From positions 1,183,699-1,247,698 of the forward strand of contig OX638292.1 in the NCBI GenBank assembly GCA_951812285.1: DNA of 64,000 bases, read 5' to 3'. Source of the DNA: an uncultured Dehalococcoidia bacterium (lineage in GTDB: Bacteria > Chloroflexota > Dehalococcoidia > Lucifugimonadales > UBA1127). Under the pieces are notes generated by a model, which was given only the letters and a program-made list of their open reading frames with translations, was not told where the DNA came from and did no database searches. The position numbers were made by a program, and so were the translations under genes. How positions within the stretch are numbered: the first letter of the stretch is position 1; the number at the start of each line of letters is the position of its first letter. Below are positions 40,101 to 57,939 of the stretch, one piece after another.

Positions 40101-40770
40101 CTTCCGCTATGTCGCGTCGACTTCGTTCACCGTCCACGTGCAGCACGACACGGTCAATGAGCCAAACGAGTCGTTCACCGTGCGCCTCGCCTACGACGGA
40201 TCGAGTCAGCCCCACCTGCTCCTTGGCGATACGACCGCCACCGTCACCCTCACGGGCGACGTTGCGCCCCTGCCCGACCTCAGCACGACCGTCAGTGGAA
40301 GCGGTGTCGGCGGAGGCGGCTTCGGCCCAGCTCCCGTCGCGCCCAAGTTCGCCGACGGCTTCCGCACCGCGCGGGCCGTCCCGGAAAACGCGCGACCGAG
40401 CGATGCTGTCGGTGACCCGGTGCCAGCCACCCACCCCGATGGGCTGGAGATTACCTACTCCCTGAGCGGTGCGGACGCGTCACTCTTCGACGTCGACGAA
40501 GAGACCGGGCAGATCAGCGTTCGGGATGGGGCGGAGCTTACGCTGGGGACCACCTACACCGTCAACCTAACAGCCACGGACTCCGCCGGCTTCGGCGCCA
40601 TCATCATCGTGATGATCGCAGTCGAGGAGGCAGCCCACCACGCCTACGACCTCAACGCAAACGGCCGCATAGATCACGAAGAGGTTGTCGCAGCAGTCAA
40701 GGACTACTTTGCGGGGCTAATCGAAAAGGAATACGTCGTAGAGCTCATCAAGCTCTACTTCGCGTCCTAG
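37102..40770 (+). CDS. Secreted protein: truncated FN3, ~16 RCC1/Crinkly-like repeats, 2 Calx-beta, cadherin-like and C-terminal EF-hand/dockerin-like module
   Basis: Signal ending PALA-Q. 15x CWG plus 1x CWP in ~37-aa repeats (H.CAI..DGTL.CWG.N..GQ..AP.G.Y). DD.VDEPDEAFTV.L. Start uncertain (36997/37102/37183). Confidence 0.8.
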   Translation: MVFLSKGLRAAYWTRALRLRGILGATVMVVLMLAASQPALAQGGSLPATPAPLSHDPMAITWTNPGDSSSMGYQALRRTPAIHDPGEFLDIEDETGNSATSYTATSVPASPETALGWPKIALDEAVPANRGAWADGLTGWKPDKGIDQPGGISSNGNAVSTGRTADDQDVLRATPRQASVGSRGFTALTQRSLMTCGLRVDGSIDCWGDNFYGTTQTPEGSFVAVASGSIRACAIRTDGTIVCWGSTDFNDVDPPEGTFKAITAHARTSCAIASDDTLACWGYDAYGQAHPPAGTYTAVTVGWEHGCALATDGTLACWGYTPAVSPPTGTYKAIAGGDVHTCAIAPDDTIACWGVNSSRQLNAPSGTYTALSGDNKHSCAIATDGTLVCWGYNGSGQTDAPAGTYTAVSSGNNHNCALSTEGTLECWGKNLSGESDPPEGTYTAVRAYFSHSCAIATDGSVVCWGYNVNERAEPPGGGHSSVALGFEHGCSIADDRTLVCWGDNTHGQTDAPTGAHKTVVVGYYHSCAIAADNTLACWGDDSLDQHDAPAGTHKALVAGDDHNCAIAADDTLECWGHKDEGQTDAPAGTYSAVVAGADHNCAIATDGTLACWGKNNYGQTNAPAGAYKALTAGDHTTCAIASDDTLACWGWNDQGQADAPAGAYSSVAIGNRHSCAIATNDTLACWGWNRDGQTDAPAGAYSSVAIGTTHSCAVTTEGKIACWGDLIGEPPDTTTGTYDTVIAREKHTCAIATDGSISCWPRTPDGVEWSNTDTFGDDEFVPVTIGWDQSTASLDEHGSTVTLGATVTTTVDRMPESGFSVLLSARTAADTATAGADYQALTQDLSFQQSDFARVDVGGQFRFQATKNVTVSIIDDTVDEPDEAFTVKLVYRGALHSHYTGGRAIATIAITDNDHVPVRLGWAETQFTVEEPTTVGDTTPVTLTARAVTTKDKRPESGFTFDIAVNTADGTARQPGDYAQLSATGAFSRGDFSRTQVDGRFRYVASTSFTVHVQHDTVNEPNESFTVRLAYDGSSQPHLLLGDTTATVTLTGDVAPLPDLSTTVSGSGVGGGGFGPAPVAPKFADGFRTARAVPENARPSDAVGDPVPATHPDGLEITYSLSGADASLFDVDEETGQISVRDGAELTLGTTYTVNLTATDSAGFGAIIIVMIAVEEAAHHAYDLNANGRIDHEEVVAAVKDYFAGLIEKEYVVELIKLYFAS
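40165..40238 (+). repeat. 74-bp exact repeat shared with 56677..56750 (core of a longer near-identical Calx-beta module)
   Basis: aacgagtcgttcaccgtgcgcctcgcctacgacggatcgagtcagccccacctgctccttggcgatacgaccgc is present at both positions. Confidence 0.85.
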
Positions 40771-41076: not shown

Positions 41077-44000
41077 TCACACCGGAACCCCGAAATACAG
41101 CTTCACCAGTTCTATGACGTCTTCCTTCGCGAGAAGCCCAGCGAAGTAGTCCTTCACCGCAGCTACGACCTCCTCTCGCTCGATGGTCCCGTTGCGGTTG
41201 GCGTCGTAAGCGTGGTGGGCTGCCTCTGACACCTCAATGGTGACGATGATGATGGCGCCGAATCCTGCCGAGTCCGTTGCAGTGAGGTTGACCGTGTAGG
41301 TGCGTCCGAGCACGAGGTCCACGCCCTCCTTCACCCGGATCTGCCCCGTCTCCTCGTCGACGGTGAAGGAGGCGGCGTCGGTACCGCTGAGGGAGTAGGT
41401 GATGGCAAGGTCGTCCACGTGGGTCGCTTGTATCGGTCCGCCCACTGCCTCCCCGGGCCGGGCGTTCTCTGGCAAGTCTCTCGTGGCGCGGAACCCGTCT
41501 GCGAATTTGGGCGCCTTCGGAGCCGGGCCGAACCCGCCACCACCGCCGCCTCCGCCTCCGCCGCCTGTCGTCGATGAGGTGGACGACCCTCCTCTAGTGT
41601 TGAAGACCCGGGACAGGGCACTCTCGGCGTCAAATGCGCTGTTCAACGCCGCCTGAATCTCGTAGAGGGTGTCCTCCTTCAGATTGGTCAGGTCGAATGT
41701 GACCTCCTGGTTGGTGGTCATTTCCGGGTCCATGGGCGTCCACCCCGACTCGCCGAGTTCTCGACAGCGCATGTGCACCATTTGTTCCGTGCCGTCCGGC
41801 GAGTGTACTTTCACCTTCGCCTTGGCGCTGTCCTTCGTCACGCCGGTCTCAGTCAGCGACTCACTGCTAGGATCCTCACCCAACGTGGTAAACATGAATG
41901 ACTTGGTTGTTTGCCCGGGGAAGTCCCGCTCCAGCGAGGCCTGCAGCTCGTATTCCTCGTCGGGAGCGAGCCCATTGAGCTCAAACTCATGGAAGTGTCC
42001 GGACGGGGCGTCTACCGGACTCCGGGTGTTCCACGGGTCAGTGCCCGACCGGTACCGCGTGTACATGGTGACGGACTCCCTCCGGTCCTTGGAACTGACG
42101 CTGACGACGACTTTCCGCTCGGACTTTTCGTGGACGTGGACGCCGGTCGGCGTCGGCACCAGAGTGGTGAACGTCCGTCTGTGCGCTCGGCGAAAGCCGG
42201 TGTCCGTATCCGCCTCTATCTCGTAGTCCATCCCGGCTGTGAGGCCGGAAACGGTGTAGGCCACCGTCGATTCCACGTTTCGGTCCGGGTTGTCGAGGGT
42301 GACGGTTGGCGCGCTAACCCAACTGCCCGCGGGAAGCGTCCGATACCGGGTGTTCACCGGCTGGTCTTCGGGCGCAGCAAACTTCACCTTCGTCGTGAGG
42401 TCGACCGTGCCCTCCGTGATTGTGTCCACGTCAATGCCAATGACTTTGGCAGGCTCTGATCTGATCGTGGTGGAAGCGGTAGCCCCTCGTGGGAAGGTGC
42501 TTTCCAGGGACGCTTCGAATTCGTACAGCGTGTCCGGCTCCAGGCCGGTGGGCTGCATCTCGACCTTTTCCTCGTCCGTCGTAGTCGCTTCGAAGACGTT
42601 CGAGTTCCACTCTCGCTCGCCTGCAATGCGGTAGCGCAGGTAGGCGGTCTTGGTCTCGGCGCCGCCATGGGCAAAGATGATGTCCATAGTGAAGTCGAAC
42701 CCGTCTATTGTGAGGATCTGGATGCGAGACACGCTGGGATCGGGCGGCAGCGTCTCCATGACCCTTGGCCGGGTGTCAGTGGCGGGGAACGATGAGCTCA
42801 ATGAGGCTTCCACCTGGTACTTCCGTCCCATTGCGAGTCCAGTGAGCGAGAATTCGGCCGTACCGGTGTCTGTGTCCTCGGATTGGGCGCTGCTCCACCG
42901 GCCGTTGGGCAATTGCCGGTGACGCAGGTAGACGCGCTGGGTGCCGCTCGGGCTTGCTATCGAGACCGTGGCTTCTGCAGTGGTCTGCGTAATGCTGCCG
43001 AGGGTCAGTCCGCTGAGGGTGGGCGACGCCTGGAGCGTCGTGAGCGAGAGCCGCGTTGTCCCACCCGAAGGGAACGTATCGTCGAGAGAGACCTCGACGT
43101 CGTACCTGACGGCAACGTCCAGGCCCGCCAACGGGAACACGACCTCGTCCGAAGTCGCGTTGCGGTCTGGCGTGGTCACCCAAGAGGGCTGTCCGGGAGC
43201 GCGGTGGCGGAGGTAGACCGTGGGCGAACGATCGTGGCGGTCCGCCACGTCGACCTTGACCTCGGCGGAGTTCGACGTCGTGGAGTCCACGTAGGCAAGG
43301 GACACCCGCGGGTCAGGCGGCAAAGTATCAAAATTGAGCCCCAGGCGAACAAACCTCAGTTCTGGAGAGTCATATCGTCCTATCACGATGTACCCAGTAT
43401 CCGGCAAGAGACCGGACACCTTCGCGGTTCCTGTATTGTCCGAGACCGTGAGTTTCACACGGGCCCTAATGGCACGTGGAATTGGGATATCGATCAGTTC
43501 AATGTTGAAGCTCTGCGCCCTGGCTATCGGATCACTGAGGGTAAGCGTCAGATCGGCTCCGTTCTTGGTGATGTTATCGGCTGTGAAGCTGGCGACTCCC
43601 GGAGGTTCGGTCTGCACCTGCGCGGTGACCGTCTCGCCGCTGGGGAAGGTGTCGTCCATGGATGCCCGCACCTCATAGACGCCGAGCGCCAGCAGTCCTG
43701 TCAGTCTGTGCTCGCCCGTTCCGGTGGTTGTCACGATGTCCGGCAGGTCGATCCAAGACTGCTCCCCCCGCTGCCGGTATTGCACGTACACCGTCTGAGC
43801 AGCGCCGTTGGGGGCGGCAAGGTTCACCGTGACCGTCGCCTCCGTCGCCGTAATGCCGCCGACCTGCATGGAAAACAGCGTGGGCGGCGCGGTTTCGAAT
43901 GTGTCACGCAACGTTCCCTGCGTGGGGAACGTGGGGTCAGTCGAGGCCTCGAGCTGGTACTGGTTGCCGGACATGAAGTGGGGCAGCTTGTGCACGAGCC

Positions 44001-47000
44001 GGGTCTTCGACGACCGCGTAGTCCCCACCTCCACGTACGTCTGACTCCAAGGGCCGGTAGGCGACTCTGTGCGAAAGCGATAGTACGTGTTAACCACGTA
44101 GAGACTGTGCCCCTCGTAGTCGACGTTGACCTCGGCTTCCGTCTGGTTCGCCGACTTTACTTCAAACCCGACGATGGTGGCGGGCAGCGTCGTTACCGAT
44201 ACCGTCTCCGTCGCGTAGCTCGGGAAGCTGTTGTACGTGGAGACCTCTACCTCGTACTCCGCGCCCGCCCGAATCCTCCTGAGCAGGAGCGTGGCAGTGT
44301 CCGTCGCCGTTCTCGTGGTCGGGCCGGACGACCACCGCGCTTCGGACCCGGCAGGGCGGTAGCGGACGTAGACGGCGCGATTGCTGCCGTCCGTGTGCTC
44401 CAGCGTCAGGTTGAGGGTCGCGCTGTCCTGGGTTACATCGACCGCCTCAACCGCCGAGACCGTTGCCCACAGCGTCGTGAAACGCACTGACTTGGTGGTG
44501 TTCGGGGTGAAATCGCTGTCCAGAGACACGGAGATTTCGTATCCGGTCTCTTGCGAGAGGCCCTCAACGGTTTCGACGATCTGCACGGCAAGTTCCAGAA
44601 GCAACGGGGGATCGAATGGGGGAGGCGGAGGAGAGGGAAGCAATCGGATCCAGGGCCCCAGGGGTGAGGTGTTCCTGTACCGTGTGTAAAACTCCCGCAC
44701 GTTTTCGCTGCTGACGCCGGCCAGGTGGTTGATGTGACTTGCCTCTGTCTGCGTCAGGCTGTAGATGCCCACACTCACTATGCGGGCCGGCCGTGTAGTG
44801 AAGGTGACCGGGAGGCTTCCAGAGTCAAGGTCACTGAGCGTGGACACCTGCACCTCATAGGTGACCCCACCGAGGAGTGGCGTCACCTCCATGGCGAAGC
44901 TGGCCGTGGTGCTTATGGCGGTCGGCCCGTCAAGCCAGTCCGTGTCGCCGACCTCGCGATACCTGGAGTAGACGGCCACCTCGCGGCCATCGGCGAATTG
45001 AATGTTGCCCGCAATCGTCGCCGAATTCTCCAGCGTTCTCTGCAATCTCACTGAAGAGACGAGGGGGGCGAGCGTGGTGATTGTTTCGGGACTGGTCTCG
45101 CTGGGAGGGAAGCTGTTGTCCAGGGACACCTCGACGTCGTAATCGGTTCCGGGTGTCAACCCTCGAATAACCAGGAGCGCTTCAAGCACGGCGTCGTTTG
45201 CCAACGTCAAGACCTGCTGGGTTGAGCTCCACGGATCGGATGGCGTGGTGCGATAGCGCAAGTAGACGGGCAGACGGCTGATCAAGTTCTGGATCCGTAC
45301 CCCTACGCTAATCTCGGTGCCCTGTGCGCTTGGGAACAATTCAACGATCGCGGGGTCCGGCGGAGCGGAAACAAATCGTTCGCTCAGCGTGTCGTTGCCC
45401 GGGAAGGTATTGGTCTGCGACGCCCGCACCTGCATGTGCGTCCCGGGCGTCAGTCCGGAGAGCGTGAAGTCCACCGTCGAGGTCGAGGTTGTATCCGTTT
45501 GGAGGCTTCCCCATGACCCGGAAGGCAGCTCCCGGTGCTGCAAGTAGACCGTTTCCGTGCCCTGGGGGTCGGCGATGGTGACCGTCACCGTTGCGCCGGT
45601 CTGGGTGATGCTGCCGGACCCAATGCTCAGCTGTTGCAGGCTGGGAGTGGCCTGCAGCGATGTGAAGGTGGTGGACTGTGTCTCGCCCGGGGGGAAGGTC
45701 GCGTCCAGCGACATTTCCGCCTCGTACGCGGTTTCGGCGCTCAGGGACGTCAACCGGACGTCCCAGATGGACAGCCCGCCGCTGCCTGACCTGGTCGACG
45801 ACCAGGGTCCGTCCGGGCTCTGGCGGTAACGCAAGTGCATGCGCGTCCCGGACTGGGCGTTTGCCACGGTGCCCCTGATGTGCGTCGCGCTGGTGGAGAC
45901 GGCCACGACCGAAACGTTGGTGAGGCTGGCTGGTGTGTGCAACGTTTCGAATTCCTCACTCTCGGACGCATCCCCGGGGAATTGGCTATCAAGCGAGGCT
46001 TGCACGTTGTACGACTCGCCCGGCAGGAGACCCGTCAACGTTGTTGTCCCCGTGTCAGTAGCGGTGGTGAGGGAGTCGGTCAGGTACTCCAGTGGGTATT
46101 GTCGGGTGCGGTAGTACTGGAGGTTGACCACTTGAGACTCCCCGTTTGGCTCATCGAGGGTCACCGTCACATCGGCGGTGGTCTGGGCGATGTTGTCCAC
46201 GCTGACGTCCGTCACGAGTGGCGGAGCAGTCGTGAACGTGCCGGACACCGTCTCTCCCTGCGGGAAGGTGTCGTCCAGCGAGGCCTGCACGTCGTACGTC
46301 GTATCGGTCGACAAGCCGGTCAGGGAGACCTCGCCCGTGGCCGTGCGCGTCACGACGGCGGAAGCGTCCGTCCATGTGACGTCGGCCTGCTTGCGGTACT
46401 GCAGGTACACGGTCTGCGCCTCGCCGTTGGGTGCGCCGATGTCGATCGTGACGGTGGCGGCGGTCTGGCCTGAGTCGTCAACCCGGACGCCCTCCAGGTA
46501 GGGAGGTAGCGTGTCGAACGTGGTTGAGGCTGTCGCGTCCGCCGGGAAGGAGAGGTCTATCGAGGCTTCGACTTCGTAGCCGGTGTTGGACGTGAGGCCG
46601 TACAGAAGAACGCTCGCCTCATCAGTGCTGCTGTGGGTCCGGTGGTAGGTCCACTGGCCCGAGGGCGTGACCCGATAGCGCGCAAAGACGTACTGCCTCG
46701 CTCCGTTGGGCTCCTGAATGGTGACGTCGAAGCTCATGCGAGTCTGGTGCGCCAGACCTCTCTGGCTTATGGCCGTCACTTTGGGCGGCTGTGTTGCGAC
46801 TGGCAGGGCAACGACGCCCGAGGCGAACCCGTTGTCGAGTGAGGCTTCAACGTCGTAGGTCGTGCCGGAGGTCAGGCTGGACACCGTGAACGTCGCGCTG
46901 GTGGTCGAGGTGGACTCTGAGGGCGCCGTCGTCCACGGGTCAGTTCCTTCCGCGCGGTAGCGAAGGTGCACCGTCAACGACGCGGAACTGGGGTTGGCCA

Positions 47001-47214
47001 GGTCGACCGCCACCGTGAACGAGGTCTGCGTGGTCTCGCTGACCGTCACAGCGGTCACCGATGGCGTCTGGGCGAGGGTGTCGTGGGGAGGCAGCAGCGC
47101 CAGCGCCACCGCTGCAATCGCGGCCGCCAACCCGACGAACAAACGACCACGGCCAAGCCACCCAGCAGTCGCCTGGCGTGCCTTGGGCTGGGCTGCGTAC
47201 TTGAGCACCCTCAT
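41077..47214 (-). CDS. Giant secreted protein with 19 FN3-like repeats, cadherin-like and C-terminal EF-hand/dockerin-like module
   Basis: Signal peptide ending TLA-Q. ~97-aa repeats V.LRYR....W...L.GL...T.Y.V.AS.D..F. Gly tract then shared C-terminus. Confidence 0.85.
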   Translation of the reverse strand: MRVLKYAAQPKARQATAGWLGRGRLFVGLAAAIAAVALALLPPHDTLAQTPSVTAVTVSETTQTSFTVAVDLANPSSASLTVHLRYRAEGTDPWTTAPSESTSTTSATFTVSSLTSGTTYDVEASLDNGFASGVVALPVATQPPKVTAISQRGLAHQTRMSFDVTIQEPNGARQYVFARYRVTPSGQWTYHRTHSSTDEASVLLYGLTSNTGYEVEASIDLSFPADATASTTFDTLPPYLEGVRVDDSGQTAATVTIDIGAPNGEAQTVYLQYRKQADVTWTDASAVVTRTATGEVSLTGLSTDTTYDVQASLDDTFPQGETVSGTFTTAPPLVTDVSVDNIAQTTADVTVTLDEPNGESQVVNLQYYRTRQYPLEYLTDSLTTATDTGTTTLTGLLPGESYNVQASLDSQFPGDASESEEFETLHTPASLTNVSVVAVSTSATHIRGTVANAQSGTRMHLRYRQSPDGPWSSTRSGSGGLSIWDVRLTSLSAETAYEAEMSLDATFPPGETQSTTFTSLQATPSLQQLSIGSGSITQTGATVTVTIADPQGTETVYLQHRELPSGSWGSLQTDTTSTSTVDFTLSGLTPGTHMQVRASQTNTFPGNDTLSERFVSAPPDPAIVELFPSAQGTEISVGVRIQNLISRLPVYLRYRTTPSDPWSSTQQVLTLANDAVLEALLVIRGLTPGTDYDVEVSLDNSFPPSETSPETITTLAPLVSSVRLQRTLENSATIAGNIQFADGREVAVYSRYREVGDTDWLDGPTAISTTASFAMEVTPLLGGVTYEVQVSTLSDLDSGSLPVTFTTRPARIVSVGIYSLTQTEASHINHLAGVSSENVREFYTRYRNTSPLGPWIRLLPSPPPPPFDPPLLLELAVQIVETVEGLSQETGYEISVSLDSDFTPNTTKSVRFTTLWATVSAVEAVDVTQDSATLNLTLEHTDGSNRAVYVRYRPAGSEARWSSGPTTRTATDTATLLLRRIRAGAEYEVEVSTYNSFPSYATETVSVTTLPATIVGFEVKSANQTEAEVNVDYEGHSLYVVNTYYRFRTESPTGPWSQTYVEVGTTRSSKTRLVHKLPHFMSGNQYQLEASTDPTFPTQGTLRDTFETAPPTLFSMQVGGITATEATVTVNLAAPNGAAQTVYVQYRQRGEQSWIDLPDIVTTTGTGEHRLTGLLALGVYEVRASMDDTFPSGETVTAQVQTEPPGVASFTADNITKNGADLTLTLSDPIARAQSFNIELIDIPIPRAIRARVKLTVSDNTGTAKVSGLLPDTGYIVIGRYDSPELRFVRLGLNFDTLPPDPRVSLAYVDSTTSNSAEVKVDVADRHDRSPTVYLRHRAPGQPSWVTTPDRNATSDEVVFPLAGLDVAVRYDVEVSLDDTFPSGGTTRLSLTTLQASPTLSGLTLGSITQTTAEATVSIASPSGTQRVYLRHRQLPNGRWSSAQSEDTDTGTAEFSLTGLAMGRKYQVEASLSSSFPATDTRPRVMETLPPDPSVSRIQILTIDGFDFTMDIIFAHGGAETKTAYLRYRIAGEREWNSNVFEATTTDEEKVEMQPTGLEPDTLYEFEASLESTFPRGATASTTIRSEPAKVIGIDVDTITEGTVDLTTKVKFAAPEDQPVNTRYRTLPAGSWVSAPTVTLDNPDRNVESTVAYTVSGLTAGMDYEIEADTDTGFRRAHRRTFTTLVPTPTGVHVHEKSERKVVVSVSSKDRRESVTMYTRYRSGTDPWNTRSPVDAPSGHFHEFELNGLAPDEEYELQASLERDFPGQTTKSFMFTTLGEDPSSESLTETGVTKDSAKAKVKVHSPDGTEQMVHMRCRELGESGWTPMDPEMTTNQEVTFDLTNLKEDTLYEIQAALNSAFDAESALSRVFNTRGGSSTSSTTGGGGGGGGGGGFGPAPKAPKFADGFRATRDLPENARPGEAVGGPIQATHVDDLAITYSLSGTDAASFTVDEETGQIRVKEGVDLVLGRTYTVNLTATDSAGFGAIIIVTIEVSEAAHHAYDANRNGTIEREEVVAAVKDYFAGLLAKEDVIELVKLYFGVPV

Positions 47215-48379: not shown

Positions 48380-51300
48380 TGGTTCCGCCCGAACGCACTT
48401 CCGTTGCTGCCGACACGGAGATGCCCCTCTCCGCGATGCCGAACGCGCGCAGCCGCCAGCGCGCCGCGCCTCGTATGTCGACCATCGTGGACCGAATGGG
48501 CCTGCTGCTGGTCCCGGCGCTCGTGCTGATGCTCCTGCTGTCTCTCACAGCGGATCCCGTGTCCGCTCAGTCCGGCACGCCGAGCGCTCCCACCCTCGAC
48601 GCCGTGTCCACCGGCGACGGCGTCCTGAACGCCGAGTGGACCGCGCCGTCGAACACCGGCTCCTCCGCCATCACGGCCTACGACATCCGTTTCATTGAGA
48701 GCAGCGCGTCCGACAAGGCGGACGAACACTGGACGGTGGTGGAGGATGTCTGGGTGCTGTCCGGCGAGCTCGAGGCCACCGTCAGGGGCGTGGACAACGG
48801 CGTCCAGTACGACGTGCAGGTGCGCGCCGTGAACTCGCGGGGCAACGGTGCGTGGTCATCGACGGTCACCGGCACTCCCGCCGACCACGGCGGCAACCGA
48901 AACTCCGCGACGGAGATCGCGCTGCAGACCCCAACGCCCGGCCTCATCTCCTCCAGTTCCGACACCGACTATTTCCGCTTTACGCTCTCGGAGCCCACGG
49001 GCGTATTCATCTACACCACCAGCTACTACTCCGGCTTTCTGCCAACGACGGGCGATCTGCGCAACAGCGGTGGTGCGGTCATCAAGTCGGACGACGGCGA
49101 CAGCGGCATGCGCCAACACGGCGACCAGCTCTTCATCTGGGACTCGCTCAGCGCCGGCACGTACTACGTCAGCGTGGAGGCACCCCAGTCCGGCGCATAC
49201 ACACTCCACACGCAGCTCGTGCCCGATGGGACGAGCGTCGACGACGCCGTTGACCTCACCCTGGGCGGCGTCACAGGGGGCATCCTCGACACCGCTTCCG
49301 GCGACGAGGACTTCTTCCGGCTCCACCTGACCCAGCAGGCGGACGTCGTCATTCGCATCGAACGCGCGAATGAGGGCCTCGACCCTATCGCCACTCTGAC
49401 GGACGATGGCGGCAACGTCATAGCCGTCCATGACGACAGCTACCTCGAGGGCGACAGGGGCAAGCACTTCATCATCAACAGGAGTTTGGACGCCGGGGTC
49501 TACTACCTGAAGGTGAATGCCGCGCCGGAATCCACGTATGAGGTCTGCAGGGGCTTTGTGCCCCGGCTCAGGCTAAGGTCCTTTGTGGACTGCATCGACA
49601 CTGAGACCAAGGACGCAGCCACCACAGGAGGGCCGTACCTCATCGGCGTCCACGAGACGCCGCGGTCAGGGTCCTCGAACTCCTCCGCTCGGCCGCTGCC
49701 CGTCGACGGCGCCGTCATCACCGCCGGCCACATCAGCACGCGAGGCGAGTCCGATTACTACAGCATCACCGTGGACGAACCCACGCGGGTGGCGGTCCAG
49801 GTCGTCAGTGACGAGGTCGACACCACCGGGACCTACTACTACCTGGGCAACAGGGAGGCTCCGGCGTATCTAAAGCCGACGGACTACGTCCCCGGCGGCT
49901 TTGGGTTCATCCTCTACGCCAATCTCGAGGCGGGTACGCACCAGGTCCGCGTGCGCGCCGGCAGATCAACCGAAACTGGCGGCTACACGGTCCGGGTGGT
50001 CGAGGACACTGAGTACGCGGATTTCTTCGACAACTGTTCCTCCATCACCACCCCCTACGACGATCCCCTGTACGGCTGCCAGTGGTACCTCAACAACACA
50101 GGCCAGAACTCGGGCGTGGCAGCCGGCATCGCGGGCGAGGACATCAACGTGGAGGACGTCTGGGCAGGCGGAAACCTCGGCGAGGGCATCATCATCGCCA
50201 TGGTCGACGACGGTCTGGAATTCGAGCACGAGGACCTTTGGGAAAACGTGGACGTCTCACTGAACCGGGACTATTCCCATGGCCGGGGTCAATTTGAGGA
50301 CCACTACGACCGTGGCACCCAGCTCGCTGGCCTCGCCGCCGGCCGGGACAATGCGATTGGCATGAGAGGCGTGGCCCCCCGCGCGACAATCGTCAACTAC
50401 AACGCCCTTCGCTACGGCTTCACATACGACATTGCGAGCGCAATGGTCAGCAATCTGGAAGACGTCGCAGTCTCCAACAACAGTTGGGGGCACATTGGGG
50501 GACCCGGGTTCAACTATTCCAGCAGCGTATGGGAAAGGGCCATCGAGCGGGGCCTTTTGGAAGGGTTCGACGACAAAGGGACCTTTTACACGATCTACTC
50601 GGGGTCGGGAGCGAACGATGGTGACTATTCCAACCTGAGCGGCTACGCGAACCACTACGGGGTCACCGCCGTGTGTGCCGTGAACGACCTTGGCCAGCGT
50701 TCCTCATACTCGGAACGAGGGTCCAACGTCTGGGTCTGCGCACCCTCCAGCGACGATGACGAAGGCAGGCAGGGCCTCACCTCGACGTTGCCGTACAACC
50801 GCTACGCATCCAACATCGGCGGCTCCGGCGCCTCAACCGCTCTGGTCTCAGGCGTTGCCGCCCTCGTTCGCAAGGCAAACCCGGACCTGACGTGGCGCGA
50901 CGTGCGGCTGGTCCTCGCCGGGTCGGCCCGCCAGAACCATACCGCCGACTCCGATTGGTCGACGGGCCCCCTCAAGTACGGTTCAACCACTGAAAATTAC
51001 AAATTCAACCACTCCTACGGCTTCGGGGTCGTGGACGCCAAGGCCGCCGTAGACCTGGCAGCCACCTGGACCAACCTGCCTCGATTCAAGTCTCTGACGG
51101 CGGTCTCAGGTGAACTGAATCTCAGAATTGAGGACATGGGGACCGTGAGCCAGGAGTTGACCGTGGGCCCCGGCGTGGACTTCATCGAGTACATCGACGT
51201 CACCGTTGACCTCTTTCACCCGTCCTTCCGCGACCTGAAAATCGAGCTGGTCTCACCCTCCAACGCCGTGTCAGCGCTGAGCGAGACCTACGATGGGCCG

Positions 51301-54300
51301 GACAAATACTCGATTGACGAAGATTTCCGGTTTGGGACCGCCAAACACCTCGGGGAGGACGCAGCCGGAACGTGGACTCTCCGGATATCCGATGGTGTTG
51401 CGGACCACCTCGGCACGCTGGATTCCTGGAGCCTGCAGATATACGGTCATGGCTCTTCTGTAAGGACTACGTCCATCCACACCGTCATCCCCGGCAGCGA
51501 GTCACTCGAGGTTGGCTGGAAGGGGATCGACGACCCCGACATAGGGGCCTTTGACGTTCGCTACATCCAGAGCGACGCCACCGACAAGGCCGACGCGAAC
51601 TGGACAGTTGTCGATGACGCCTGGACTGGCGCCGGCCCCCTTGAATACGAGGTTACCGGACTCACCAACGGGACCACCTATGACCTGCAGGCGCGTGGCG
51701 TCGGGGTCACGGAGCACGGGGAGTGGTCGGACGTCGTCACCGGCGCTCCCGCCGCCGCGGCCGACGCCGTCCCCGCGGTCATCGCCGCGCTCGGCGAGGA
51801 ACATGCGCTCGGCGTCGTATGGAGCGCGCCGTCCAACCCGGGTGCGACGACGACTGCCTACGACGTACGCTACATCCGCAGCGATGCCAGCAGCAAGGCC
51901 GACGCCGACTGGAGCCTGGTGGACGACGCGTTGACGGACCTCGACGGCAACCTTGCCTACACGATAGCGGGCCTCATGAACAACGTGATGTATGACGTCC
52001 AGGTGCGCGCCGTGAGCTCCAGCGGCGACGGCGCGTGGTCCCCCACCGCCAAGGGCCTGCCCCGTGAGGTCGGCAATGACCTGCGCACAGCCTCGCCCCT
52101 CGCGTTTGCTCTTCCCTTCCAGGCCGCCATGGACTTCTCCAACGACATTGACGTGTACCGAATAGACCTTGCCGAGGAAACAGAGGTCTACTTGTATTCC
52201 GAGGGCCCCACGGACACGGTTGCCGAGCTTCTTGACGCCGACGGCAATTCCTTGCGGTTCAATGACGACTCTGGAGCTTTCCTGAATTTTTCCATTCAGG
52301 AAACCCTCCAGCCGGGCGTCTACTTCCTTGAAGTCACGGGTTGGAGCGGATCCACCGGCAACTATCAGCTCTGGATGCTGATGCCGGAGGAGGAACAGGA
52401 CATCGGTGATGCACTCACGCTTGAACTCGGAAGTTCCATTGATGCCAACATCTCCGTGGACGACGCCGACTACTACAAGCTGGTCTTGACTGGGGAAACT
52501 GAGGTCCTCCTATACAGTTCCGGCGATACTGACACTTATGCGGAGCTTCTCAATGCAGACGAAATGTCCCTGGTGACTGACGACGACGGCTTTCTGCCCA
52601 TCGGCGTCCGGAACTTTACGATCCGGCGCACCCTTGCCGCCGGCACGTATTTCCTGAAAGTCACCGGCCATTTCAATGCGGTGGGCGACTACACAGTTCA
52701 CGCCAAGGCTGTGACCGCCCCCGGCAGTACGCCGGCAGACGCCCTCTCCTTGACGCTAAATTCGCCCGAGGGCGGGAACATTGACCCCGCCGGTGACGCA
52801 GACTACTACACGTTCACCCTGGCGGCTGCGGACTATGTAAGAATCAGTGCGGTCCCGGATTCCAATGCATCGAACCCCCCGGACGTGAAGGGAGAGATTC
52901 TTGACGCTAGCCTTAACTCGCTCGAGGCGTACTTCATAGACTCCTACTACCTCGAGGCATTCGCGATTTACGACTACCTGCCGGCCGGCACCTACTATCT
53001 CAAGGTAACCGGAGATACGGATGCCGTCACTGAGTCGTACATCGTCATGGTGTCTGACGACACGTATGTCCGTGAACTGACGGAAATGTGCGCAGACATA
53101 TTCCCGGAGGTTTCAGACCCCTTCTTCGGCTGCCAGTGGTACCTGCGCAGCGAGGGGCAGCTGCCCGCCCTCGCAGACTCCGACATCAACATCGGTGACG
53201 TCTGGGACGACTACAAGGGGGACGGGATAACCGTCGCCATCGTCGACACCGGTCTGGACTACCGGCACGGCGACCTGCGTGGAGACAGGGTCGACGAGTC
53301 CAAGAACCACTCCTACGTGGAGGGAAGAGACGTCGATGAATTCTCCCCCTCCCACGGCACCGGTGTCGCAGGCATCATCGCCGGCCGTGAGAACGACATC
53401 GGCATGCGCGGCGTTGCCCCGGAGTCCACGATCTATGCCTATAACCTTCTGCAACATTTTAGCGAAATGAACGAGGCCGACGCGATGAGCAGGGACTCTG
53501 CCACCACCGCCGTCTACAACAACAGCTGGGGAGTGCCTGATTTCGCCGCCGGGCCCGGAGCAGCCTCGTCCCTCATCAAGCTGGCGATTGAAGACGGCGT
53601 CATCAACGGCTACGGTGGCAAGGGCGCCTTCTACGCCTGGGCCGCCGGGAATGGCCATAACTTGGGCGACTACTCCACACTGGAGGAGTACTCTAACCTC
53701 TTCGGCGTAACCGCCGTGTGCGCCGTCAACTCGTACGGGAAGCGCTCCACCTATTCCGAGATGGGCTCCAACCTCTGGGTGTGCGGCAGCTCCAACGGCG
53801 GCGGCCGCGGGATCTTGACGACCACGCACAGAAACTCATTCACGCAGTTCTTCGGCGGGACCAGCGCTGCCTCGCCGATGGTCGCCGGCGTCGCCGCCCT
53901 GGTGCGCGACGCCAACAACGCCCTCACCTGGCGCGACGTCAAGCTCATCCTCGCCGCGACGGCGCAGAAGATCGACCCGGACAACCTGGGCTGGGAGACA
54001 GGCGCGCTCAAGTACGGCTCCACGTCCGACCGCTACGACTTCAACCATGAGTTCGGATTCGGCCTCGTGGACGCCGAGGCCGCCGTTGAGGCGGCCGAGA
54101 ACTGGACCCTGCTGCCCAAGTTCCGGCGGGTCACCGTCGCATCCAGCGCCGTTGAGCGTGCAATCCCGGACAGGCCTCTTCAGGGGAGCCCGACGTTCAC
54201 AGAATTCACCCTCACGGTGGGCCCCTACGTAGACTTCATCGAGCACGTGCAGATCGACGCCCACATCGCGCACGAGTCGTTCAGGGAGCTCCAGATCGAG

Positions 54301-57300
54301 TTGGTGTCGCCTTCGGGCGCCGTTTCGGTGCTTTCCCCCTACTATCCCCCGGACGGCCCCCGCTTTTTCGGCTTCCCGGAGGCCCGGTGGGACGCGCCCT
54401 TCGAGTTCAGCTCCACCAAGCACCTGGGTGAAGACGGGGCCGGTGAATGGACGCTCCGCATCGCCGACCACTACACGGGTAGGTCCGGCACGCTCCGGTC
54501 GTGGAGCATCACCCTCTACGGCCACGGCGATTCACCCGAGATCCCCGCGATCGATTCCGTAACCCCCGGCGTCCGCAGCGCAACGATCGCGTGGACCGCG
54601 CCCGAGGACCCCAACAACGCCATCACCTCCTACGACCTGCGCTACGCCGACGGCGGCAACACCGACCTCGCCGAGGACGACTGGACCGTAGTCGAGAGTA
54701 TCTGGACCTCCGGGACGCTGAGCTACACCCTCACCGGCCTTGCGGCCGACGTCGAGCACTGGGTCCAGATCCGCGCCGTCGCCAGTGCCGGACCGGGTCC
54801 GTGGTCGGAAGAGGAGAAGGTTTTCGTCAACCTCGCCGCGCCCACGGCCGTCACGGTCGACGAGATCCGCACGGGCGACCGCTCACTGGGCATCTTCTGG
54901 CAGCCCCCATCAGAGGCGCTGGGAGGCGAGATCACCGCCTATGACATTCGCTACATCCTGACCTCTGAGGACGAGACCGTCGACGGCAACTGGTCCGTCC
55001 GCAGCAACGCGTGGCAGACCGGACTCCTCCAATACGACCTCATGTCGTTGACCAACGACTCGGAATACGACGTCCAGGTGCGCGCGGTCAACTCCGCGGG
55101 CCGTGGCGCGTGGTCGGTCACGTCAACCGGCACCCCCGTCGACCAGGTCAACGTCTCCCTGAGCTGGGAGGTAAGCTCGGCGACCTACGCCGAGAGCGAG
55201 GGCCGGGTCGTTCTGAAGGCGGTCATGGTCACGACGGAAGACGGCGCCCTGCCGTCCTCATTCTCCGTGGACGTCGACGTCTCGGCGTCTGGCGCCGCGG
55301 TGGATCCGGAGGACTACATCCTCGGAACGCAGACCCTGACGTTCTCCGCCGGCGACTTCACCGCCGTCACAGTCGGCTCCGACGACCGGTGGCGCGCCGA
55401 GACCGACGTCGTCGTCACCATACGGGATGACGGTGTAATAGAATCAAACGAGAGCTTCACCCTGACGCTGTCGTACGACACCCTCGTGCAGTCGCACCTG
55501 CGGGGCAACAACGACGCGCTCACCGTGACCATCACGGACGACGACCACGTGCCGGTGACCCTGAGCTGGGTCCAGTCCCTCGTGTCAGTCGACGAGGGCA
55601 GCGGCCGGGTCCGCCTGACGGCTGTCGCGGAGACCACCGCGAACACGGCCCCCAAAGCCGGCTTTGCCTTCCAGGCGTTGATGTCCGCCGTTCAAGGCAG
55701 CGCAACCAAGGGCGACGACTACCCCGTGGCATTCGGCATGGTGGTCTTCCCCGGGACCGCGTTCACCAGGACCACCATAGACGGCCTGAGCCGCTATCGC
55801 GCCAGTGTCCAGATCGAGGTCCCCATCACCGACGACACGCTGGACGAGCCCGATGAGACGCTGACCCTCGTCCTCTCACACGCCAACCCCAGCCTGCGGT
55901 ATGCGGTTGGTGGAGCAGACTCAGTCGACGTCGTCATCAGGGACGACGACTATGGCCCGGTCAGCCTCAGCTGGGAACAGACGTCGTTCACAGTCGACGA
56001 GGACGACAGCTCCGTCACCCTTACTGCCCACCTGACCACGGAGACTTCATTGATGCCTGAGACAAGCATGACCGTCAACGTACGCGTAAGCACGTCAGGC
56101 GTCAGCGCCGCAGCCGGCTCGGACTTTAGCGAGCTGAACAACACGGCACGCTTCAGGGTGGGGGACTTCACCCAGCAGACCGTGAACGGCCAGCTCCGCT
56201 ACCGCGCGTCCAAGGACTTCACCGTCAACCTCATCAACGACACCGACGATGAGCCCGATGAGGAGTTCAGGGTGACGCTGTCCTTCACTAACCCTTCCCT
56301 CCCCCACCTCGTGGGAGGGAGCAAGGACGCCTTTGTCACCATCATTGACAACGACCACGTGCCGGTCACCCTCGGATGGGAGGAGACGGCATTCACGGCA
56401 GAGGAGCCGACAAGCCCAAGCGATACGACGCCGGTGACCCTCACCGCCCAGGCCGTCACGACCGTCGACAAGCGGCCGGAGAGCGGCTTTACCTTCGATT
56501 ACACCGTGAACACGCAGAACGGCTCGGCGCGGCAACCCGATGACTACGAGCAACTCTCGACGTCCGGGACCTTCAGCCGCGGCGACTTCACCCGCACGCA
56601 GGTCGACGGCCACTTCCGCTACATCGCATCGACTTCATTCACGGTCCGGGTGCAGCATGACACGGTCAATGAGCCGAACGAGTCGTTCACCGTGCGCCTC
56701 GCCTACGACGGATCGAGTCAGCCCCACCTGCTCCTTGGCGATACGACCGCAACCATCACCCTCACGGACGACATCGCGTCCCTGACCGACCTCAGCGCGT
56801 CCGTCAGCGGCGGCCCGGGCAACGTCGAGCGCGGCGATCAGATCACCTACGACTGGACCGTCAGCAACAACGGCCCCTCCGCCTCCACGTCCACGCGCTT
56901 GACCGGCTCCCTCGACGCGGGTACGAGCTTCGTATCGGCGACGCCCTCCGGCCAGTGCAGCGGGTCCGGTAACCGGGTCACCTGCAACCTCGGCACGCTC
57001 GAGGTCAACGACTCTGCGAACGGCACCGTCGTGGTCGAGGTCAAGGACGCCGCCTCTGGGGACCTGGACTTCGCGGCCAGCTTCAGCTCCGACCAGTTGG
57101 ACCGGACCCCCTCCGACAACACGAACTCGGTGCACACGGAGCTCGTGGCCCCACCCGATGACATCACCACCCTGAACGCCGCGCCGACCACTGAATACAT
57201 CGACATTTCATGGTCGCCGCCCAAGGACAACGGCAGCGAAGTGACCGGATATGAATTGGAGCGGAAGACCGCGGACGGAGCGTTCGTCCCCATGTTCCCT

Positions 57301-57939
57301 CCGCCCGTGCCAGGTGAGATTTCCTTCCGTGACGATGATGTGGAGCAGGATGTTGAGTACACCTACCGCATTCGCGCCATCAACAATGATGGTACGGGAA
57401 AGTGGTCAATAGAGATTATCGCCAAGCTCGGCGTGCCCCCTCCCCCGCCAACTATCACAACTGGCGGCGGTGGCGGCGGTGGCGGCGGCTTCGGCCCCGC
57501 TCCCGTCGCCCCCAAGTTCGGAGACGGGTTCCGGACCACGCGCAGCCTGGCGCAAAACGCGCGGCCCGGCGGCGCCGTCGGCGACCCCGTGCTCGCCACG
57601 CACCCGGACGGCTTCGACATAACGTACTCCCTGAGCGGGACGGACGCCGCCCTGTTCACCGTCGACGAGGACACGGGCCAGATCCGCGTGAAGGAGGGAA
57701 CAACCCTTGAGCTTGGCCGCACCTACACCGTCAACCTTACGGCCACCGACTCTGCCGGCTTCGGCGCCATCATCATCGTCGCGATCACGGTCGAGGAGGC
57801 GGCCCACCACGCATACGACGAGAACCGCAACGGCACAATCGAACGCGAAGAGGTCATTTCCGCCGTCAAGGACTACTTCGATGGGGAGATATCCAAGGAA
57901 GACGTCATAGAGCTCATCAAGCTGTACTTCTCCACCTAG
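48379..57939 (+). CDS. Giant multidomain kexin-like S8 protease: FN3, PPC-like domains, degenerate S8+P domain, intact S8+P domain, FN3, 4 Calx-beta, DUF11-like, cadherin-like and C-terminal EF-hand/dockerin-like module
   Basis: Signal ending VSA-Q. S8-2 has VDTG/SHGT/AAGNG/GGTSAASP; S8-1 has VDDG/DRGT/YSGSG/GGSGAS. Both have LTWRDV, GFG.VDA and a P-domain (ELVSPS, GE...G.WTL.I.D). Start uncertain. Confidence 0.85.
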   Translation: MVPPERTSVAADTEMPLSAMPNARSRQRAAPRMSTIVDRMGLLLVPALVLMLLLSLTADPVSAQSGTPSAPTLDAVSTGDGVLNAEWTAPSNTGSSAITAYDIRFIESSASDKADEHWTVVEDVWVLSGELEATVRGVDNGVQYDVQVRAVNSRGNGAWSSTVTGTPADHGGNRNSATEIALQTPTPGLISSSSDTDYFRFTLSEPTGVFIYTTSYYSGFLPTTGDLRNSGGAVIKSDDGDSGMRQHGDQLFIWDSLSAGTYYVSVEAPQSGAYTLHTQLVPDGTSVDDAVDLTLGGVTGGILDTASGDEDFFRLHLTQQADVVIRIERANEGLDPIATLTDDGGNVIAVHDDSYLEGDRGKHFIINRSLDAGVYYLKVNAAPESTYEVCRGFVPRLRLRSFVDCIDTETKDAATTGGPYLIGVHETPRSGSSNSSARPLPVDGAVITAGHISTRGESDYYSITVDEPTRVAVQVVSDEVDTTGTYYYLGNREAPAYLKPTDYVPGGFGFILYANLEAGTHQVRVRAGRSTETGGYTVRVVEDTEYADFFDNCSSITTPYDDPLYGCQWYLNNTGQNSGVAAGIAGEDINVEDVWAGGNLGEGIIIAMVDDGLEFEHEDLWENVDVSLNRDYSHGRGQFEDHYDRGTQLAGLAAGRDNAIGMRGVAPRATIVNYNALRYGFTYDIASAMVSNLEDVAVSNNSWGHIGGPGFNYSSSVWERAIERGLLEGFDDKGTFYTIYSGSGANDGDYSNLSGYANHYGVTAVCAVNDLGQRSSYSERGSNVWVCAPSSDDDEGRQGLTSTLPYNRYASNIGGSGASTALVSGVAALVRKANPDLTWRDVRLVLAGSARQNHTADSDWSTGPLKYGSTTENYKFNHSYGFGVVDAKAAVDLAATWTNLPRFKSLTAVSGELNLRIEDMGTVSQELTVGPGVDFIEYIDVTVDLFHPSFRDLKIELVSPSNAVSALSETYDGPDKYSIDEDFRFGTAKHLGEDAAGTWTLRISDGVADHLGTLDSWSLQIYGHGSSVRTTSIHTVIPGSESLEVGWKGIDDPDIGAFDVRYIQSDATDKADANWTVVDDAWTGAGPLEYEVTGLTNGTTYDLQARGVGVTEHGEWSDVVTGAPAAAADAVPAVIAALGEEHALGVVWSAPSNPGATTTAYDVRYIRSDASSKADADWSLVDDALTDLDGNLAYTIAGLMNNVMYDVQVRAVSSSGDGAWSPTAKGLPREVGNDLRTASPLAFALPFQAAMDFSNDIDVYRIDLAEETEVYLYSEGPTDTVAELLDADGNSLRFNDDSGAFLNFSIQETLQPGVYFLEVTGWSGSTGNYQLWMLMPEEEQDIGDALTLELGSSIDANISVDDADYYKLVLTGETEVLLYSSGDTDTYAELLNADEMSLVTDDDGFLPIGVRNFTIRRTLAAGTYFLKVTGHFNAVGDYTVHAKAVTAPGSTPADALSLTLNSPEGGNIDPAGDADYYTFTLAAADYVRISAVPDSNASNPPDVKGEILDASLNSLEAYFIDSYYLEAFAIYDYLPAGTYYLKVTGDTDAVTESYIVMVSDDTYVRELTEMCADIFPEVSDPFFGCQWYLRSEGQLPALADSDINIGDVWDDYKGDGITVAIVDTGLDYRHGDLRGDRVDESKNHSYVEGRDVDEFSPSHGTGVAGIIAGRENDIGMRGVAPESTIYAYNLLQHFSEMNEADAMSRDSATTAVYNNSWGVPDFAAGPGAASSLIKLAIEDGVINGYGGKGAFYAWAAGNGHNLGDYSTLEEYSNLFGVTAVCAVNSYGKRSTYSEMGSNLWVCGSSNGGGRGILTTTHRNSFTQFFGGTSAASPMVAGVAALVRDANNALTWRDVKLILAATAQKIDPDNLGWETGALKYGSTSDRYDFNHEFGFGLVDAEAAVEAAENWTLLPKFRRVTVASSAVERAIPDRPLQGSPTFTEFTLTVGPYVDFIEHVQIDAHIAHESFRELQIELVSPSGAVSVLSPYYPPDGPRFFGFPEARWDAPFEFSSTKHLGEDGAGEWTLRIADHYTGRSGTLRSWSITLYGHGDSPEIPAIDSVTPGVRSATIAWTAPEDPNNAITSYDLRYADGGNTDLAEDDWTVVESIWTSGTLSYTLTGLAADVEHWVQIRAVASAGPGPWSEEEKVFVNLAAPTAVTVDEIRTGDRSLGIFWQPPSEALGGEITAYDIRYILTSEDETVDGNWSVRSNAWQTGLLQYDLMSLTNDSEYDVQVRAVNSAGRGAWSVTSTGTPVDQVNVSLSWEVSSATYAESEGRVVLKAVMVTTEDGALPSSFSVDVDVSASGAAVDPEDYILGTQTLTFSAGDFTAVTVGSDDRWRAETDVVVTIRDDGVIESNESFTLTLSYDTLVQSHLRGNNDALTVTITDDDHVPVTLSWVQSLVSVDEGSGRVRLTAVAETTANTAPKAGFAFQALMSAVQGSATKGDDYPVAFGMVVFPGTAFTRTTIDGLSRYRASVQIEVPITDDTLDEPDETLTLVLSHANPSLRYAVGGADSVDVVIRDDDYGPVSLSWEQTSFTVDEDDSSVTLTAHLTTETSLMPETSMTVNVRVSTSGVSAAAGSDFSELNNTARFRVGDFTQQTVNGQLRYRASKDFTVNLINDTDDEPDEEFRVTLSFTNPSLPHLVGGSKDAFVTIIDNDHVPVTLGWEETAFTAEEPTSPSDTTPVTLTAQAVTTVDKRPESGFTFDYTVNTQNGSARQPDDYEQLSTSGTFSRGDFTRTQVDGHFRYIASTSFTVRVQHDTVNEPNESFTVRLAYDGSSQPHLLLGDTTATITLTDDIASLTDLSASVSGGPGNVERGDQITYDWTVSNNGPSASTSTRLTGSLDAGTSFVSATPSGQCSGSGNRVTCNLGTLEVNDSANGTVVVEVKDAASGDLDFAASFSSDQLDRTPSDNTNSVHTELVAPPDDITTLNAAPTTEYIDISWSPPKDNGSEVTGYELERKTADGAFVPMFPPPVPGEISFRDDDVEQDVEYTYRIRAINNDGTGKWSIEIIAKLGVPPPPPTITTGGGGGGGGGFGPAPVAPKFGDGFRTTRSLAQNARPGGAVGDPVLATHPDGFDITYSLSGTDAALFTVDEDTGQIRVKEGTTLELGRTYTVNLTATDSAGFGAIIIVAITVEEAAHHAYDENRNGTIEREEVISAVKDYFDGEISKEDVIELIKLYFST

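Follow-up and report, generated by a model that had tools for sequence, protein, structure and literature searches.

The DNA stretch analysed here, called the window, comprises 64,000 nucleotides of an uncultured Dehalococcoidia bacterium (contig OX638292.1, positions 1,183,699 to 1,247,698) and carries three open reading frames (ORFs), designated genes 1, 2 and 3, whose translations end in one common module made up of a poly-Gly linker, a cadherin-fold domain and a tail, or tag, of 46-48 amino acids (aa). In all three genes this ending leads from a Gly run through FGPAPxAPKFxDGFR and a 96-aa cadherin-like domain (ITYSLSG..., TYTVNLTATDSAGFGAIIIV) to the tail, whose consensus reads AAHHAYDxNxNGxIxxEEV..AVKDYF.G....E.V.EL.KLYF, with the stop codon next. 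Over 158 aa, the modules of genes 1 and 2 share 74% and 79% identity, respectively, with that of gene 3, and the translations thereby confirmed the original prediction that the three ORFs have one conserved C-terminal module in common. New in the present analysis is a candidate scaffold for the tag, a family of putatively membrane-anchored proteins termed family Y. The three genes comprise the following features.

36997-40770, plus strand: gene 1 ORF, 1257 aa, opening at TTG 36997, with a probable ATG at 37102
37102-37227, plus strand: gene 1 signal-peptide-like N-terminus, a hydrophobic 12-mer followed by ALAQ
within 37102-40770, plus strand: gene 1 cargo, RCC1 repeats (RCC1_2, E 4.1e-92, 14 stretches) and two Calx-beta domains (E 1.3e-13)
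40303-40341, plus strand: gene 1 linker, GVGGGG-FGPAPVA
40342-40629, plus strand: gene 1 terminal cadherin-fold domain, 96 aa (Cadherin 18.3-22.1 bits, under the cut-off; profile comparison with the PDB)
40630-40767, plus strand: gene 1 tag, 46 aa, with EF-hand-type loop YDLNANGRIDHEE and two helices (EF-hand_1 19.8 bits); stop codon at 40768-40770
41077-47214, minus strand: gene 2 ORF, 2045 aa
47068-47214, minus strand: gene 2 signal-peptide-like N-terminus
within 41077-47214, minus strand: gene 2 cargo, a long array of FN3-like domains (fn3, E 1.3e-33)
41512-41565, minus strand: gene 2 linker, G11-FGPAPKA
41224-41511, minus strand: gene 2 terminal cadherin-fold domain, 96 aa (Pfam Cadherin 31.3-32.7 bits, over the 28.8 cut-off)
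41080-41223, minus strand: gene 2 tag, 48 aa (EF-hand_1 20.4 bits); stop codon at 41077-41079
48352-57939, plus strand: gene 3 ORF, 3195 aa, with ATG candidates at 48379 and 48478
48478-48573, plus strand: gene 3 signal-like stretch, ATG 48478 immediately preceding the hydrophobic stretch
within 48352-57939, plus strand: gene 3 cargo, two units of S8 subtilase plus P-domain, then PPC, FN3, four Calx-beta, DUF11 and FN3 domains
57463-57510, plus strand: gene 3 linker, G9-FGPAPVA
57511-57798, plus strand: gene 3 terminal cadherin-fold domain, 96 aa (Cadherin 28.4 bits; AlphaFold2 (AF2) model)
57799-57936, plus strand: gene 3 tag, 46 aa (EF-hand_1 26.8 bits, over the 25.4 cut-off)
57817-57852, plus strand: gene 3 Ca-loop, D119-E130 in module numbering
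57844-57930, plus strand: gene 3 residues 128-156 in module numbering, predicted by complex prediction to contact family Y

The cargoes had been called unrelated. Their domain sets do differ, gene 3 being the one that matches Pfam Peptidase_S8 (E 4e-68, two stretches) and P_proprotein (E 1.6e-36), but genes 1 and 3 share a Calx-beta pair (39430-40300 and 55942-56811, respectively) with 61% identity over 290 aa, the similarity being far higher in the second domain. In gene 3 this pair is separated from the tag by inserted DUF11 and FN3 domains. The common Calx-beta block is a case of domain shuffling among the carriers of the module.

The genome is a single contig of 2.86 Mb and is 94% complete. 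A hidden Markov model search of all its stop-to-stop ORFs revealed the module in 15 ORFs, at the C-terminus in every one, of which 13 are canonical; the other two, tandem paralogues, have a diverged module and carry the tail twice. Cargoes of the further carriers include S8 proteases, PPDK_N-like domains, SWM repeats and cadherin arrays. Compared in pairs, the canonical 13 have on average 64% amino-acid identity and 51% third-codon-position identity, on which grounds they are old paralogues under purifying selection, alike far beyond chance. Recent gene conversion was rejected as the source of the similarity, third-position identity being just 51%. With 15 carriers and with synonymous sites of the module copies close to saturation, the module extends, as had been anticipated, beyond three recent paralogues.

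Thirteen of the 15 carriers start with a hydrophobic signal-like stretch, followed in 11 of them by an AxAQ- or AQ-type motif; the carriers accordingly look secreted rather than cytoplasmic, and secretion of the tagged proteins is probable. The claim that they lack a transmembrane helix or known sorting signal held good in that a hydropathy scan found no transmembrane-like 19-mer past residue 110 in any of the 15 carriers, and NCBIfam gave no C-terminal sorting-signal match.

In the AF2 model of the module (predicted local distance difference test (pLDDT) 87.7, predicted TM-score 0.70), the tail consists of a non-helical loop (residues 112-127 are not helical) and two helices, 128-139 and 145-157. 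Among Pfam families, the tails matched generic EF-hand families only, EF-hand_1 scoring 16.5-26.8 bits against a cut-off of 25.4 and mostly below it, and Dockerin_1 stayed unmatched at E up to 10 in six queries made with tails or modules. When a profile of the 13 modules from this genome (A1) was compared with the PDB, its tail region touched just lanmodulin-type EF-hands (E 0.0023), and no dockerin was among the matches listed, 60 of 111 at E <= 1. In 27 diverse tails, Y118, D119, E130 (loop position 12) and a C-terminal Tyr were invariant. The loop consensus is DxNxNGxIxxxE, and a PROSITE-style EF-hand loop pattern was present in 60 of 87 distinct modules, in 57 at one fixed distance from the end. 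At the second site just G-x-I and an acidic residue are kept, with no second canonical loop. Because of the invariant loop residues, the loop pattern and the model, the tag is probably best described as one Ca2+ loop with its exiting helix, followed by a second helix that is preceded by traces of a loop; binding of Ca2+ by the tag is likely. The EF-hand-type Ca2+ loop originally proposed was borne out by the loop consensus with its invariant Asp and Glu, and the tag is not a plain match to a characterized dockerin, the dockerin profile (Dockerin_1, PF00404) being hit neither by the tails nor in the genome.

The cadherin assignment of the 96-aa domain is real, as had been supposed. The 13-module profile found protocadherin-15 as its best PDB match (E 3.3e-11), with cadherin-23 also matched, and a Foldseek search with the module model, whose beta-sandwich spans residues 24-111, led to the extracellular cadherin (EC) domains of the same two proteins (E 2.4e-8). 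The Pfam Cadherin cut-off of 28.8 bits was passed by gene 2 alone, gene 3 falling just under it at 28.4. Across the families of the order the tail can still be recognized, whereas the cadherin part diverges and the FGPAP linker, a genus-specific feature, is no longer present.

Beyond this genome, the module was matched in the genomes of 22 of 41 relatives, and the full-length module matches in a named-contig collection all came from records titled Dehalococcoidia. With a tail-only profile (A2), the tail was found in 56 of 201 genomes of the window's order and in one of 300 other Chloroflexota genomes, in agreement with the original prediction of a lineage-specific tag. Against 1.84 billion representative proteins the same profile gave 3795 matches at E <= 1e-3 and 748 at E <= 1e-10, and a cluster look-up of 10 tag-bearing representatives returned no named one. 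As for placement, in loci L031-L139 each copy with a tail (86 of 86) reaches to within 0-5 aa of the stop codon. The best 150 representatives divide into 82 with one tail, at the C-terminus, 12 with a series of tails of which the last is C-terminal, 24 with a series that begins in the first 100 aa, 12 with one N-terminal tail, 10 with an internal tail and 10 with short loop repeats only. Inspection of the sequences placed the N-terminal copies directly after signal peptides, with 2 or 4 tandem copies in many relatives and a three-copy form in P0007; the cargo downstream of them comprises trypsin-like proteases with leucine-rich repeats (LRRs), FN3, cadherin, He_PIG and RCC1 domains. Strictly C-terminal matches had been expected, which was correct for this genome and for loci L031-L139 but not for the wider family.

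Strict C-terminal placement in this genome would suit a secretion or sorting signal that is read, and perhaps cleaved at the Gly linker, in the manner of the C-terminal domains (CTDs) of the type IX secretion system (T9SS) or of exosortase, rhombosortase and sortase substrates. The terminal beta-sandwich and Gly-rich junction of the module are reminiscent of T9SS CTDs, and some family Y proteins end in LPSTGG or LPPTGG before a transmembrane helix. The carriers, on the other hand, already have N-terminal signal-like stretches, no transmembrane helix or basic tail follows the module, the genome lacks a sortase, the sole T9SS-tail match lies internally in gene 3, and the tail occurs elsewhere at N-termini and in tandem, so that we regard a sorting signal as very improbable. 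Because the tail is also found at N-termini, in tandem, or behind a Y-type domain, the data argue instead for an autonomous portable interaction handle and against a strictly C-terminal signal.

Family Y was found by comparing the neighbours of the 15 carriers and has four copies in this genome. Its members consist of a signal-like N-terminus, one or more beta-sandwich domains of ~115 aa, a long Pro/Thr linker, a C-terminal membrane helix and a basic tail. Family Y matched no Pfam family at E <= 1 and no NCBIfam family. An ORF can hold from 1 to 6 or more Y domains, with 3-4 in tandem in other families of the order and 6 in one ORF. A hydrophobic 19-mer and an Arg-rich basic tail end 44 of 49 distinct complete Y ORFs, and by its sequence Y is most plausibly a membrane-anchored surface stalk with tandem domains. 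In two of the 49 (relatives' loci L114 and L165), LPSTGG or LPPTGG, an LPXTG-like motif, precedes the hydrophobic helix and basic tail; most other Y proteins have E/D-G-G-x-P-x-W ahead of the helix.

The model of the Y domain (pLDDT 95.4) found a cohesin, 5n5p_A, at rank 1 in Foldseek (E 7.7e-5, TM-score 0.52), with 2xdh, 3ul4, 2jh2 and 6kgf also listed, and the VIA aligner returned 2w1n (Z 11.7), 2vo8 (Z 10.9) and 2xdh (Z 9.5). Sequence searches with Y against solved structures gave weak matches only, to YweA (E 0.027) and BslA (E 0.1-0.16), and a feature-based atlas search gave weak leads toward DUF11, all scores being < 0.9. An intramolecular isopeptide bond, of the kind reported for the fold neighbours CLIPPER and pilins, was rejected for Y, whose invariant columns include no Lys or Asn.

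Three of the four Y genes of this genome lie 12-40 bp downstream of a tag-ending gene, and the fourth lies ~380 bp upstream of the two double-tail paralogues. Among 30 Y loci, the best per genome and picked without regard to the tag, a tag-ending gene stood directly upstream on the same strand in 24, the distance from the end of the tag to the first Y domain, including Y's own signal peptide, being 102-373 nt. Presence and absence were also compared in the same 201 genomes of the order, the overlap being counted from the two listings (tag in 56, Y in 57): 50 genomes have both, 7 Y only, 6 the tag only and 138 neither. Outside the order, among the 300 other Chloroflexota, the single genome with the tag (G431) is the only one with Y, and there the two are adjacent on one contig. 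Finally, in three proteins of relatives (L180 and L181 in G118, L182 in G193), with cargo including LRR and beta-propeller-like repeats, a Y-type domain takes the place of the cadherin domain right before the tail. By analogy, such Y-plus-tag proteins resemble adaptor scaffoldins, which carry both receptor and tag.

On a tree of 86 distinct modules, the label of Y adjacency needed 11 changes; shuffled labels needed 26, and none of 500 shuffles came as low. A quick tree groups most Y-adjacent copies of the window's genus in one subclade (14 of 17 rows, Shimodaira-Hasegawa-like approximate likelihood ratio test 95). The pair of tagged gene and Y gene looks like an old order-wide unit, from which this genus spread the tag over many more cargoes.

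For complex prediction, residues 12-158 of the gene 3 module were combined with one Y domain and one Ca. The interaction score from aligned errors (ipSAE) was 0.65, 0.79 and 0.87 (median 0.79), and the best of three controls reached 0.22; contact agreement between runs was at least 10%, and partner pLDDT at least 93. The predicted contacts of the module all lie in the two tail helices (128, 131-132, 135, 138, 145-146, 148-150, 152-153 and 155-156), and those of Y (residues 31-34, 51-56, 63-68 and 92-96) on one sheet, so that docking is predicted for the 46-aa tail rather than for the full 150-aa module. Conservation in the tail is higher at the contacting residues (entropy 1.23 bits) than at the other non-loop positions (1.75 bits). 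The tag of gene 3 passed this prediction though its clade is without adjacent Y. A tag-Y contact is supported by the prediction and is used below as a predicted one.

Two other roles of the module may be set against these data. The cadherin part and the Ca2+ tail together could form an adhesive tip that binds an external ligand on a host, a matrix or another cell, with Y a separate adhesin stalk sharing the operon. A cadherin fold and EF loops are classic elements of Ca2+-dependent adhesion, FN3, cadherin, LRR and RCC1 domains abound in the cargo, and the Y fold also resembles stalk domains of fibrillar adhesins and pilins. We nevertheless find such a tip rather unlikely: the carriers would be left without any other anchor, order-wide conservation belongs to the tail and not to the drifting cadherin part, the contact predicted is between tail and Y, and a generic handle fits better a tail that also occurs without cadherin, at N-termini and behind Y domains. 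Alternatively, the tag could associate with itself, lone EF-hand-type units pairing so that tagged proteins dimerize or form a Ca2+-dependent mesh, and Y would then be merely a co-expressed stalk. An EF-hand usually acts together with a second one, and the tag has a single canonical loop; many relatives have 2 or 4 tandem copies, two paralogues here have two, and the conserved hydrophobic face is equally suited to helix-helix pairing. Self-association could coexist with docking; as the explanation it seems improbable, leaving as it does the tag-to-Y gene order (24 of 30) and the co-occurrence unexplained, and three-copy forms exist (P0007).

We therefore favour, with somewhat better than even confidence, a display system resembling cohesin and dockerin, in which the 46-aa Ca2+ tail docks on family Y as the anchored scaffold. 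Docking on a then nameless scaffold had been the core of the original prediction, and it gains support here, Y being the candidate by adjacency, co-occurrence, architecture, fold and predicted complex.

Several observations weigh against this reading. The tag is absent upstream of 6 of the 30 Y loci, and Y is next door to just 20 of 74 distinct tag-selected modules, which fits, as expected, many tags sharing few scaffolds, Y genes being fewer than tags in this genome (4 compared with 15). The three genes of the window themselves belong to expansion clades without adjacent Y. Thirteen of the 201 genomes carry one partner without the other, and the co-occurrence counts ignore kinship, larger genomes tending to hold both. 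The complex score is a measure of model confidence that may borrow from solved cohesin-dockerin complexes, and its calibration, in which the mark was attained by 58 of 80 solved complexes and by 2 of 110 mismatched pairs, applies only roughly here, since alignments of our own and a riding Ca set our runs apart from it. The predicted interface of Y is not more conserved than the rest of the domain (1.84 compared with 1.49 bits), which is neutral to slightly negative for the contact, and the contacting residues of the tail are hydrophobic, so that their conservation could serve folding alone. The fold matches of Y are flat and non-specific, the Ig-like domain of PrgB (Z 12.4), CLIPPER, pilin and AgI/II domains tying with cohesins; judged by its model, the Y fold appears cohesin-like but not specifically so. 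Of the Y homologues within the searched lengths (244, unnamed or 'hypothetical'), 2 of 120 listed carry a precomputed DUF11 (PF01345) assignment. The strict loop pattern was missed by 27 of the 87 modules, and the signal-peptide calls come from a crude heuristic based on hydropathy.

If the tag docks on Y as proposed, the system could work as follows. Fifteen proteins, with subtilases, FN3 arrays, RCC1/Calx-beta domains, cadherin arrays and PPDK_N-like domains as cargoes, would be exported by the Sec pathway, each finishing with a flexible Gly linker, a cadherin-fold domain as spacer and, last, the 46-aa tag with its loop and two amphipathic helices. After export, Ca2+ would order the loop, and the hydrophobic helix face (V131, I132, V135, Y138, V148, I149, I152, Y155 and F156) would bind one sheet of Y non-covalently. 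The Y proteins would stand as surface stalks on their C-terminal membrane helix with its basic tail, and a few such anchored scaffolds could hold many payloads on a cell apparently without peptidoglycan-based anchoring. For this proposed way of working, the anchoring scaffoldins of cohesin-dockerin systems are the closest parallel.

Such a cell is consistent with the gene content of the genome, as Pfam searches of the whole genome gave no match for penicillin-binding protein transpeptidase (PF00905), sortase (PF04203), SLH (PF00395), cohesin (PF00963) or, at E <= 0.01, dockerin (PF00404); the missing transpeptidase, SLH and sortase matches are what would be expected of a cell without a peptidoglycan wall. 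According to passages of a review, an ancestor common to Dehalococcoidales and the SAR202 cluster lost the dcw wall-synthesis genes, and Dehalococcoides has an S-layer-like wall (PMC10608941). For such a cell, a membrane-anchored receptor on a long stalk would be a sensible route of display. Full-text literature searches, mostly judged from titles and the openings of abstracts, turned up no description of the tag or of Y.

Like dockerins (PF00404), the tag is a short end module that secreted proteins carry together with widely varying cargoes, and it can stand at either protein end. As in dockerins (PMC12484212), a helix follows its EF-hand-like Ca2+ loop and none precedes it; its helices are predicted, as in dockerins, to lie on a beta-sheet face of an anchored partner. 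Unlike dockerins, neither its tails nor the genome match Dockerin_1, and its 46 aa hold one canonical loop and a degenerate second, whereas dockerins have two duplicated Ca2+ loop-helix segments in the arrangement loop-helix-helix-loop-helix (PMC12484212). Since the tag has a single canonical loop and no duplicated segments, a dual binding mode in the style of dockerins is not expected for it. It further differs in the cadherin-fold domain that always precedes it in this genome, and in cargoes that are proteases and adhesin-type repeats, not carbohydrate-active enzymes.

The likeness of Y to the cohesins of anchoring scaffoldins (PF00963; 5n5p, 3ul4, 2xdh) lies in its all-beta sandwich of ~115 aa, for which two aligners had cohesins among the top matches, in the tandem arrangement of its domains on a surface-anchored protein with Pro/Thr linkers, and in proteins that join a Y domain and the tag, as adaptor scaffoldins do. 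On the other side, the genome has no Cohesin match, the TM-scores of Y are just 0.5-0.6 and other Ig-like folds are its equals, it shows faint leads to DUF11 and BslA/YweA, and it is anchored by a C-terminal membrane helix, not by SLH or sortase. Because the profiles are unmatched and the tag has one loop compared with two, tag and Y look like an analogue of cohesin and dockerin and not like sequence members of either family.

With canonical EF-hands (EF-hand_1; lanmodulin is the best solved match) the tag shares the loop consensus with its invariant first Asp and twelfth Glu, but its model has no helix before the loop and each tag a single loop, not a paired helix-loop-helix, and it probably lies outside the cell, joined to giant surface proteins. 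The 96-aa domain matches cadherin (PF00028), namely the EC repeats of protocadherin-15 and cadherin-23, in fold and profile; it departs from them in that the last EC-type domain runs straight into an EF-type tail without the usual inter-domain Ca2+ linker, and in relatives a Y-type domain, or none at all, can stand in its place. The sortase/LPXTG, SLH and T9SS CTD systems differ from the present one, whose carriers have no transmembrane segment past residue 110 and whose genome has no sortase or SLH.

A more far-reaching version, in which the wall-less marine Dehalococcoidia independently evolved a half-size cohesin-dockerin-type system, with a single-Ca tag, Y arrays on stalks, a programmable protease and adhesin surface, and tag subtypes (Y-adjacent and expanded) that would encode specificity as dockerins of types I and II do, is put forward tentatively, the balance tipping somewhat against it. 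How uncultured Dehalococcoidia hold large surface proteins is the question addressed, and a tag-receptor pair, if true, would account for how some of the largest proteins of these genomes are displayed. It would also give a name to two unannotated families, the tag with 3795 representative matches and Y with 244 within the searched lengths, extend the cohesin-dockerin principle beyond the degradation of plant cell walls, and offer protein engineering a compact orthogonal docking pair.

Among the carriers, the two tandem paralogues (G000:C1:879242-881596 and 881878-884175, plus strand) encode 784 and 765 aa without any Pfam family, and have a diverged cadherin-like domain and two tails, the first degenerate, with 13-14 residues after the second. 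Two orphan modules (855562-856074 and 2529330-2529848 of the same contig, plus strand) are ORFs of 170 and 172 aa that start at the poly-Gly linker and have no signal peptide and no cargo homology upstream; the former keeps a Y gene 40 bp downstream, and similar short module-only ORFs occur in relatives. Frameshifted genes were rejected as their origin, cargo homology being absent upstream. They are probably 5'-truncated relics, and the G-rich linker DNA may act as a recombination junction. Two tagged proteins with signal peptides, of 950 aa (628738-631590, minus strand) and 983 aa (1633924-1636875, plus strand), carry a PPDK_N-like AMP/ATP-binding domain (E 3.6e-25 and 9.9e-24), an odd domain for exported proteins.

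Within gene 3, residues 1282-1330 match Por_Secre_tail (TIGR04183) at 27.6 bits (cut-off 23), in the 49100-52500 region of the window and within pre-peptidase/PPC-like repeats; a T9SS signal was rejected because the position is internal and not C-terminal. The genes flanking the three carriers in the window were rejected as partners, being housekeeping genes (GlmU-like, NDK, TsaB-like, DprA, topoisomerase I and a XerC-like integrase). Directly upstream of gene 3 lies one further feature:

47627-48379, plus strand: family X, a 250-aa putative lipoprotein (LAAC lipobox)

Its stop overlaps the 48379 ATG of gene 3. Family X matched no Pfam or NCBIfam family; its members have ~250-340 aa, a lipoprotein-type signal with the LAAC lipobox and a conserved C-terminal domain. 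All three copies in the genome, the others being at G000:C1:1017515-1018537 and 1612937-1613683, stand directly upstream of tagged giant S8-subtilase genes. Family X relates to the protease cargo and not to the tag, and could be a membrane-tethered partner of the protease, for example an inhibitor or a prodomain-like chaperone.

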